A stretch of 64,000 bases of DNA from a phage. A program made the position numbers and the translations under genes. The stretch is taken from sequence record PZ476263.1; one strand, written 5' to 3'. Below the pieces are notes generated by a model. The model did no database searches. It was not told the origin of the DNA and saw only the letters and a program-made list of their open reading frames with translations. Shown piece by piece: positions 1 to 1,261 of this stretch; the stretch's first letter is position 1, and each line of letters opens with the position of its first letter.

Positions 1-359
1 GATAAAGCACGCTTCTCTCTTCTTGTCAAATAAAAATTTATTTTTTCTTTCTTGCCAGAATATCGAGGGTGACTTGCCCCAATGTTGGGAGGGCCGTCGG
101 TCGTGGAATCTATCAAGTTGGAATGATTCGACCTGCAACCTTTATTGTTGGGATAGTCACGTCTGTAATCGTCCCAAACCAGGCGGGGCGCGGAGTAGGG
201 GAGTAGTCGGGTCGTCAGTCAATCCATTTTGGCAACTGGTCCGGCTTAGTGCGTATAAGTTGTATTATGTTAAATGCAGATCGAAATCGGTATTCTAAAT
301 CAGATTCAGAAGTCAATAGAAATCTTTAACTTTATTGTTGGAAGGGCACAACATTTTTC

Positions 360-387
360 TTGACAAGTCGAATCAAAGATGTATTGT
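360..387 (+). promoter_or_regulatory. Candidate sigma70-like promoter TTGACA-N16-TATTGT inside the non-coding tract
   Basis: TTGACA at 360-365 and TATTGT at 382-387. No downstream ORF. Confidence 0.25.
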
Positions 388-444
388 GGATTGAAAATAA
401 ATGAAGATAATGCTTGACTTCTTGGATATTTTGAAAACATCGGA

Positions 445-462
445 CCCCCCTCCCCCTCCCCC
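445..462. repeat. Homopyrimidine tract C6-T-C5-T-C5 (G5AG5AG6 on the minus strand)
   Basis: Read directly; it stands out in an AT-rich context. Confidence 0.9.
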
Positions 463-1261
463 GAGAGCGGCGTGCCTAGCACCAGTGCCAACGCACTCAA
501 CAAAAAAGATGCAAACATCCTCTGCTTTCTTGCTGACGAAGAACAAGGTCAAGGGACACCACTGGCGAGCCTCTTTAGGCTACCCCTTTGGATATTTTGG
601 GCAGGATAAATAATGGACCCACCCCGTGGAGTATCCATCATAAAATTTGGCGGGGAGGTATATTTTATGACCTGTGAGATATTTTGTGGGATATTCACAG
701 GCGGCATACCCCGTAAGAGGTGACTCAAAATTTTGGCGAGGGGTATAAAAACTAAAAAGTGGTCGTTTAAAATTCAGGCTGGAGGTCCACTCAGGGTAGG
801 CATATACTGGAAATTCTAAACTATGAGGGATGGATGTATAGGGAAGGGAGGTGACTCTGTGGGAAGTGGATGTACACACGAGCCTCACTAGGCGAACGTG
901 ACTCTGTGGACAATCGGAATAACATGAAGTAGGTCAGTCTCTTCAGAAAGTCTTGACCATTGTGGAAATATATGAAGTAATCCGTCAACCAAAATGGTTT
1001 ACATTGTAGAAAGTAAACCAAAATGGTTTAGATGTGGGTAAACAGATGTGCCTCGACAGGCAAAGTGGTGTGCCTCAGTAGGCCAACAGTGGTTACTCTT
1101 TAGGCAAACTACCTAATTTTGGGATGAACTGATATTTGTGGGAATCGTTGTACGATATTTGGGCATTATTGTATGCAGTGTACAACAGTTTGGAAGGACT
1201 ATGTAGTTTGGTGGCACAACATTTTGGGATGGGAAGATGAGTTTGGTTGCAATCCAGATGC

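Follow-up and report, generated by a model that had tools for sequence, protein, structure and literature searches.

An oriented array of short words beside the direct terminal repeat of an rV5-like phage genome as a putative packaging recognition region

The sequence record PZ476263.1 was analysed as a window of 64,000 nucleotides (the whole stretch of phage DNA, with positions counted from its first letter). The window belongs to a tailed-phage genome whose leftward gene arm covers about 1.3-48.6 kb and whose rightward arm starts at about 49 kb, and its GC skew tracks the direction of transcription. Bases 1-1261, lying beyond the end of the leftward arm, are the subject of this text. This tract is the left physical end of the linear, non-permuted genome of an rV5-like member of the Vequintavirinae. 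It consists of a direct terminal repeat (DTR, bases 1-476) and a spacer (bases 477-1261) that carries many short words in one orientation. These words are putative recognition sites for the packaging complex, a reading held here with middling confidence. A first-pass annotation had found no credible gene in the tract, and this was confirmed. Its open reading frames (ORFs), the longest of 102 aa, had no Pfam or PHROG match, tblastx and blastn of the tract against the rest of the window gave no similarity, and its relatives contain many indels.

In the phage collection, similarity to bases 1-1300 or the adjoining genes is confined to six records. They are A5-4, A7_1, W70 and A73, which are Escherichia phages of the genus Septuagintavirus, together with LTH01 and UPEC06; all six belong to the Vequintavirinae. 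With the first-gene protein as bait, IMG/VR gave no match and the phage collection returned the same six genomes only. The tRNAs of the window (Met, Tyr, Gly, Gln and Pro, none of them before 51 kb) are the same five as in Escherichia phage Jab. The genome of Jab, published in 2026, has 142,100 bp, a GC content of 40.09% and tRNAs for Met, Tyr, Gly, Gln and Pro, and its nearest relatives are exactly the phages that match the window (PMC13538427). The window therefore probably represents Jab or a phage nearly identical to it. The window and its six close relatives were combined in a seven-phage alignment. Further relatives were gathered from IMG/VR with the 27-nt DNA pattern GTGCGYATAANNNGTATTATGTTAAAT, and their loci were oriented on that element.

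Short terminal repeats have been reported for several phages of this group. The DTR of LL12 was mapped with PhageTerm to 104,966-105,424 and has 459 bp (PMC6658697). The terminal repeats of Gotham also have 459 bp (PMC7471380), and the direct terminal repeats of Jab have 475 bp (PMC13538427). In the paper on rV5, the area is drawn as a "non-coding" box, and bidirectional intrinsic terminators were not found at the convergent junction (PMC3606486). The UPEC06 record begins at the base aligned with base 1 of the window, and its first 462 nt are 100% identical to its last 462 nt. The LL12 repeat starts, in reverse complement, with GACAAG.., and the window starts with GATAAAG... With ^ marking the boundary, the right ends of the repeats read ..CGTCCGCC^TGGCAGCA in LL12, ..CGTGCC^TGGCAGCA in UPEC06 and ..GCGTGCC^TAGCACC at 476^477 in the window. 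The DTR of the window was set at 1-476 because its left start and right end align with the repeat boundaries of LL12 and UPEC06. Its left start GA(T/C)AA and right end ..GCC^T(A/G)GCA agree with the experimentally mapped DTR termini of LL12, and its length of 476 bp is within one base of the 475 published for Jab.

The surroundings of the repeat are the same in the relatives. The records of A5-4, A7_1, LTH01, A73 and W70 are opened away from the terminus, and in all five the homologous region lies between plus-strand genes on the left and minus-strand genes on the right. One IMG/VR contig (loci L019 and L024) has the element at both of its ends, and its L019 end begins exactly at the point of the left terminus. 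The possibility of a packaging or terminus region, raised in the first-pass annotation, is borne out by these alignments, in which base 1 would correspond to the left physical terminus and bases 1-476 to the DTR. The terminal repeat itself is already known for the rV5-like group. Bases 1-476 differ in nothing from the repeats of LL12, Gotham and Jab, being alike in position, in the non-coding convergent setting, in length and in the homologous boundaries. In phage A73, the left tip of the DTR is present as a 103-bp tandem duplication (L005 2675-2732 and 2778-2835, 58 nt at 98% identity), and owing to this duplicated tip the inferred DTR of A73 would have about 567 bp instead of 460 bp. The features of the repeat are as follows.

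1-30, plus strand: left terminus, with GATAA.., a pyrimidine run and TGTCAA (24-29); several genera have R-A-C/T-A-A and then TGTCAAG at +19 to +29.
1-476, no strand assigned: left DTR, boundary to about ±1 nt, from the UPEC06 ends, the LL12 PhageTerm boundary and the Jab DTR length.
249-275, plus strand: invariant 27-nt DTR core GTGCGTATAAGTTGTATTATGTTAAAT, from exact pattern matches; always 196-242 nt before the right boundary.
249-476, no strand assigned: strongly conserved right half of the DTR; mean pairwise identity 96.4% in seven phages.
360-387, plus strand: putative inward-facing site of the sigma-70 promoter type, TTGACA-N16-TATTGT, with 10 of 12 positions as in the consensus; no variation in the seven close phages.
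425-431, plus strand: boundary-proximal GATATTT, 52 nt before the right DTR boundary.
445-462, plus strand: C-tract CCCCCCTCCCCCTCCCCC, in the same place in Septuagintavirus phages and CR3-like loci, about 545 nt further in in LL12.
470-484, no strand assigned: right DTR boundary GCGTGCC^TAGCACC (476^477); relatives have the near-palindrome TGCC-T-GGCA.

These landmarks are shared well beyond the close relatives. Exact matches to the pattern GTGCGYATAANNNGTATTATGTTAAAT were obtained for 16 IMG/VR loci; their contigs are mostly of 121-153 kb, with a few shorter or longer ones. The loci with this pattern include Cronobacter phage CR3, Salmonella phage PVP-SE1 and Escherichia phage Av-05, and the DTR of LL12 has the core too. 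The left boundary follows the consensus ..TTGC(T/C)(A/T)^(G/A)(A/G)CA.. with TGTCAAG thereafter at about +19 to +29. The right boundary can be identified in all oriented loci as ..GCC^TGGCAGCA or ..GTCCGTC^TA(A/G)C.., and CR3 has the near-palindrome GCCTGGCA at both inferred boundaries. GATATTT stands at -50 to -52 from the right boundary in 20 of 20 oriented loci, representing at least five genera. The flank has one to four more copies in the same orientation, at +23 to +250 and farther out, and almost none on the other strand. The core, GATATTT, the boundary sequences and same-strand words of the GATATTT(T)G(T)GGG type recur in five named genera. Within 249-476, the window is 95.1% identical to the other phages, and the adjoining genes are 84-93% identical. 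The 27-nt core, the fixed GATATTT, the boundary consensus and the flanking oriented arrays are absent from the LL12, Gotham, Jab and rV5 papers and seem to be undescribed.

Two further observations concern the left boundary. In LL12, six GTGTC or ATGTC words occur within about 70 nt just outside the DTR (L008, about 2926-3010), spaced by about 10-12 nt and ending with TGTCA^GACAAG; series of this kind are also found outside the left boundary in L015 and L017. In the window, a 14-nt inverted repeat at 22-35 and 354-367 (CTTGTCAAATAAAA and TTTTTCTTGACAAG, 86% complementary) links the terminal TGTCAA to the TTGACA of the promoter-like site.

To the right of the DTR, the spacer is marked by an excess of short G-rich words on one strand. 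In bases 1-1261, T[TG]TGG occurs 18 times on the plus strand and 3 times on the minus strand. The strict patterns give 7 WTTTGG and 4 TTGTGG on the plus strand (11 in total) and 2 copies on the minus strand. The first-pass annotation had counted at least 20 copies, all of them on the plus strand. The enrichment and the plus-strand bias hold; the number is too high, and the restriction to one strand is not complete. Two of the minus-strand T[TG]TGG matches sit inside palindromic AAACCAAAATGGTTT units. The examples that had been quoted are present at their positions (gatattttgggc at 591, gatattttgtggga at 678, aaaattttggcgagggg at 727, gatatttgtgggaa at 1131 and acattttgggatggg at 1219), as are the exact duplicates gtgactctgtgg (851 and 898), aaccaaaatggttta (987 and 1016) and tgtgcctcNNNaggc (1047 and 1069).

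The chance expectation was taken from dinucleotide-preserving shuffles, 2000 for the window and 500 for the relatives. On the plus strand of 477-1261, there are 16 copies of T[TG]TGG versus 3.9±1.7 in the shuffled sequences, none of the 2000 shuffles reaching 16. The excess thus goes beyond composition. The minus strand of the same stretch has 2 copies versus 2.1 expected, and bases 1-476 have no excess (2 versus 1.6 expected). Shuffling of both strands therefore upholds the proposed plus-strand excess and restricts it to 477-1261. The best other 785-bp stretch in the 64 kb has 5 copies on the plus strand. The equivalent cluster in five relatives contains 14-16 copies versus 3-4 expected, which was matched in none of the 500 shuffles. 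The spacing of words in the main array is irregular (9-126 nt), and distances of 21-23 nt are found in local pairs or triplets only. The longer words are nearly restricted to 477-1261 within the window; elsewhere in it, GATATTT stands in unrelated contexts and lacks the G(T)GGG tail. The spacer and the terminator next to it contain the following features.

477-1058, plus strand: variable modular part of the spacer; identity 69-76% in seven phages, with many indels and whole units gained or lost.
566-580, 879-893 and 1047-1062, plus strand: GCCTCNNNAGGC units, from a repeat search.
591-602, plus strand: GATATTTTGGGC, a word in the variable part.
591, 678, 1131 (GATATTTGTGGGAA) and 1154 (GATATTTGGGCA), plus strand: repeated words of the form GATATTT(T)G(T)GGG.
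643-667 and 726-752, plus strand: AAAATTT(T)GGCGRGGRGGTATA, a word in the variable part.
678-691, plus strand: GATATTTTGTGGGA, a word in the variable part.
851-862 and 898-909, plus strand: GTGACTCTGTGG, a word in the variable part.
855 and 902, plus strand: CTCTGTGG(G/A), a repeated word.
Within 984-1033, plus strand: two AAACCAAAATGGTTT palindromes, in the variable part.
1059-1261, plus strand: conserved dense block; mean identity 92.9% in seven phages, motif positions invariant.
1069-1084 and 1094-1106, plus strand: additional GCCTCNNNAGGC-type units, in the dense block.
About 1182 and about 1216, plus strand: two copies of ACAACA(T/G)TTTGG, units of the dense block.
1262-1285, minus strand: terminator hairpin of the leftward arm, GCACCC/GGGTGC with a T-run, from sequence reading and the minus-strand minimum-free-energy fold; invariant in relatives.

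The dense block contains seven T[TG]TGG in 125 nt (1118, 1137, 1158, 1189, 1207, 1223 and 1242), which are 16-31 nt apart. The conservation of motif placement in relatives thus applies to 1059-1261, where positions are invariant, and fails for 477-1058 with its many indels. The ACAACATTTTGG unit varies in copy number among relatives, and the spacer of A5-4 has a 21-nt tandem of ACTCTGTGGACAAT. By blastn, the flanks of the CR3-like and LL12-like phages have no detectable homology to the window. Spacer words of 10-17 nt are nevertheless common to these flanks, always on the same strand and about 190-1550 nt downstream of the core. The LL12 flank mainly repeats CTCTTCAGGT. The hairpin at 1262-1285 was not listed by a simple terminator scan. 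In W70, the stretch homologous to the gap from 486 to 708 in the window contains a 160-aa ORF (L006 3339-3821) whose product has an HNH_3 endonuclease domain (E 5e-13), apparently a homing endonuclease inserted in non-coding DNA by the DTR.

The evidence points to a possible sequence-specific recognition by conserved proteins at the genome end, because the 10-17-nt words outlast the divergence, one word stands at a fixed distance from the cut site and the words are restricted to the terminus. In phages with neighbouring genes at 84-93% identity, blocks 249-476 and 1059-1261 reach 93-96%. Repeated oriented words beside a cut site, as expected of an array of the cosB, pac or SRL/SRR type, are present. 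The idea of a protein-binding array, put forward with the original description, fits the conservation of words across genera; the iteron-like duplicates that went with it are not regular iterons. We infer that the words may be bound by the packaging complex and that the process served would be packaging. In replicative concatemers, successive genomes would share a single copy of the DTR, which joins the right end of each to the left end of its successor. A conserved cut site would flank this DTR on either side: ..TTGCTA^GACAA-type at its left end and ..GCC^T(A/G)GCA at its right end. The spacer would provide GATATTT(T)G(T)GGG, CTCTGTGG(G/A), AAATTTTGGCGGGAGGGTA and ACAACATTTTGG in the same orientation, with the putative founding GATATTT 50-52 bp inside the right boundary. 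A terminase or an accessory DNA-binding protein could bind the GATATTT-type words on either side of the right boundary. The bound words would then identify the concatemer junction and direct the two cuts, one at each boundary, from which the repeat arises.

Several points weigh against a packaging array. Position is what links the words to terminase. Spacing cannot be critical in the middle of the spacer, where large indels and even the insertion of a homing endonuclease are tolerated. LL12 lacks an enrichment of T[TG]TGG and is enriched in CTCTTCAGGT in its place, so the vocabulary of the array is only partly shared. The mirror array across the DTR is weak, with 5-8 copies versus 2-3 expected. 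Furthermore, a signal related to transcription or replication would give the same strand bias.

The strongest rival is a buffer for transcription of the Rho type. RNA reading through from the leftward arm would be similar to a Rho utilisation (rut) region, host RNA polymerase escaping the terminator at 1262-1285 would be released before it enters the DTR, and the mirror region would serve the rightward arm in the same way. This is unlikely to be the full explanation, although it deserves serious attention and could coexist with a packaging function. Like rut regions, the RNA is C-rich, G-poor and weakly folded, and it follows immediately on a transcription unit. In 78-nt windows over the reverse complement of 477-1261, the C/G ratio has a median of 1.67 and rises to 5.0 at most; the median for the sense RNA of the leftward arm is 0.70, and ratios above 1.5 are confined to 1.3% of the windows there. 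The first 162 nt beyond the terminator (1261 to 1100) fold weakly (-20.6 kcal/mol, z -0.8) and have a nearly open centroid. A weakly structured RNA with at least about 80 nt of C over G downstream of a transcription unit, by which rut regions are recognised, is thus present. In nearly all lineages checked, the plus-strand GC skew is positive over the 600-800 nt that follow the DTR on its right, and parts of the left flank have a negative skew. In the right-end flank of A5-4, the final terminator of the rightward arm is followed by a nearly G-free stretch in which C/G reaches 13. Such a buffer accounts for both the strand bias and the mirror symmetry. The authors of the rV5 paper, who found no bidirectional intrinsic terminators at the junction, proposed the use of host polymerase throughout (PMC3606486). 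The conservation is what this explanation handles poorly: words of 10-17 nt and a block of 200 nt are conserved above the level of the neighbouring genes, and the fixed GATATTT at -50, inside the DTR, is left unexplained. To our knowledge, rut sites are not usually conserved in sequence; the strong word conservation and the fixed word inside the DTR set the tract apart from them. The word excess survives dinucleotide shuffling and is hence more than composition, and the whole minus-strand RNA of 477-1290 is more folded than its shuffles (z -2.5, from 20 shuffles only).

A replication element appears improbable. The tract would be an origin, or the words would be priming or helicase-loading sites on the strand with its 3' end at the nearby terminus; the last lagging-strand primer would then be laid just inside the DTR, and the DTR alone would remain single-stranded for the formation of concatemers. 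Forks leaving the DTR, or sites on a terminal lagging-strand template, would fit the way in which the words are oriented and the sign of the GC skew to either side of the DTR. Local phasing of 21-23 nt is seen in three GCCTCNNNAGGC-type units at 1044-1110 and in the ACTCTGTGGACAAT copies 21 nt apart in A5-4. GTGTC is a recognition word of the T7-primase type, and six GTGTC or ATGTC words lie within about 70 nt just outside the left boundary of LL12. The rV5-like phages encode a gp4-like primase-helicase (PMC3606486). In the window, on the other hand, GACAC, GACCA and GACCC are not enriched on the plus strand of 477-1261 (3 counted by eye versus about 2.3 expected). No adjacent initiator gene was identified, and the spacing of 9-126 nt in the main array provides no regular iterons. 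The near-matches to the DnaA box listed in the first-pass annotation, and its option of a replication origin, lead no further. The exact box TTWTNCACA is absent from both strands of 1-1261 and occurs 9 times versus 9.6 expected in the whole window. An AT-rich unwinding region is also missing (GC 0.44/0.41 in the tract versus 0.33 at 48-49 kb).

A non-coding RNA of about 900 nt, running from the promoter-like site at 360-387 to the hairpin at 1262-1285 and offering UUUGG and UGUGG as binding sites for protein or RNA, is a rather remote prospect. The TTGACA-N16-TATTGT site had been correctly located. It agrees with the consensus at 10 of 12 positions and does not vary among seven phages, and the hairpin could act on both strands. 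Nevertheless, the site was not seen by eye at that position in the LL12 alignment or in the CR3 sequence and scan, where the words are conserved, and the plus-strand hairpin lacks a proper U-tract. No Rfam 15 match was obtained at E<=1 in 1-3000. The plus-strand RNA is no more stable than its shuffles (z -0.8 for 477-1290 and +1.2 for 1100-1261), and GGA, the CsrA-type word, is not enriched (24 versus 19±3). The earlier suggestion of a non-coding RNA template was abandoned on these grounds. A literature search found no relevant transcriptome of this phage group. Decay of coding sequence or chance composition is the least credible origin of the words and highly improbable. Coding DNA can reach a comparable density, as the 13 minus-strand T[TG]TGG in early genes at 47.6-48.4 kb demonstrate. 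However, the ORFs of the tract lack Pfam and PHROG matches, tblastx found no similarity to the rest of the window, and the indels among relatives are not constrained by a reading frame. The conservation of two blocks exceeds that of the genes beside them, and the landmarks keep fixed positions across genera. Judged from the alignments, decayed coding sequence appears to be excluded by this pattern of conservation.

A wider proposal extends the packaging reading and joins it with parts of the two main rivals. The landmarks would make up a hitherto undescribed two-boundary recognition code for short DTRs in a myovirus subfamily without its own RNA polymerase: TGTCAAG, about 20 nt in from the left end; the 27-nt core; GATATTT, 50 nt in from the right end; and the near-palindromic cut sites, TGYC-W-GRCA. 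The outward arrays to either side of the DTR would act on the strand ending 3' at the nearby terminus, as sites of priming or loading, of polymerase release, or of both, leaving exactly the DTR single-stranded for concatemers and free of transcription. This proposal is speculative and rather doubtful.

Several other candidates were considered and rejected. A CsrA-sponge RNA was discarded with GGA at 24 versus 19±3 and AGGA at 2 versus 4.7. FtsK-orienting polar sequences (FtsK/KOPS type) are represented by one GGGNAGGG on the plus strand of the tract and two on the minus strand in the C-tract. The idea came from the label "DNA translocase FtsK" on an 89-aa ORF close to the right genome end of UPEC06 (L007 3088-3357); the ORF has no Pfam match at E<=0.1, and the label looks unfounded. 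The action of Chi depends on its polarity relative to the entry of the enzyme at a DNA end. Chi-like protection from RecBCD was rejected: the tract contains no Chi, and its G-rich words lie on the strand running 5' to 3' inward, the wrong orientation for entry from the nearby end. A telomere-like G-strand would likewise have the wrong polarity. A general class of phage promoters or operators was dismissed, the long words being almost confined to 477-1261. GATATT as a part of a promoter was also rejected, since a reading of the sequence by eye gave no promoter-like distance to any -35 hexamer.

Among known systems, the packaging array proposed here can be compared with several terminus-associated regions. 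In T7 and T3, the SRL and SRR arrays lie by the 160-bp terminal repetition, and there are packaging signals at the concatemer junction (reportedly described in the work of Dunn and Studier in 1983 and of Chung and Hinkle in 1990). Both cases combine short imperfect repeats adjoining a short DTR, packaging from concatemers and a function that is tied to the ends but poorly defined. The words, the unit length and the family are different, the present phage being a myovirus that uses host RNA polymerase. The position differs as well: the array lies here at the 3' end of a convergent gene arm, whereas in T7 and T3 it precedes the early promoters. In phage lambda, cosB contains the sites R1-R3 for the small subunit of terminase beside the nick site cosN, and pac sites are known from SPP1 and P22. 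What these regions share with the tract is a repetition of oriented words whose distance from the cut is fixed and which remain with the packaged genome. Unlike them, the present phage would have two cut sites about 476 bp apart that make a repeat, as well as far more copies of the words over about 800 bp, and its array is known from sequence alone. The terminal repeat of T5, a region of about 10 kb, contains genes, and its injection stop signal belongs to the two-step transfer of DNA. The comparison with the left end of T5, drawn in the first-pass annotation, is valid only loosely: both genome ends have repeat-rich non-coding DNA, and the length and gene content of the T5 repeat do not correspond.

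The recognition, cutting and duplication of short DTRs have been worked out mainly in T7-like podoviruses, where they are tied to the phage RNA polymerase. The rV5-like myoviruses, common candidates for phage therapy, have similar short repeats and, according to the rV5 authors, probably use the host polymerase. Landmarks conserved in at least five named genera make their packaging mechanism testable. The oriented arrays are a new example of terminus-associated repeat arrays, found in a myovirus subfamily. In practice, the landmarks can be used to place the true genome ends in arbitrarily opened assemblies, and they flag sequences that engineered or minimised genomes should probably keep.

Some observations were made at the other end of the leftward arm. 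The stretch 47634-48419 has 13 T[TG]TGG on the minus strand in 785 nt, the minus-strand maximum of the window, and falls within four small early-looking genes at the start of the arm. Inside this cluster, at about 48,242-48,255, a 14-nt exact match to 1117-1130 (TTTGGGATGAACTG) occurs in the opposite orientation. GATC is found once in bases 1-1261 (at 279) compared with 5.4 per kb throughout the window, and five GATC lie within 64 nt (48,664-48,727) at the divergent arm junction. This junction (48,640-48,900) is in the most AT-rich kilobase of the window (GC 0.33) and has direct repeats, with ttcatttcattcataa occurring twice. As a candidate origin or regulatory region, it is more conventional than the terminal tract.

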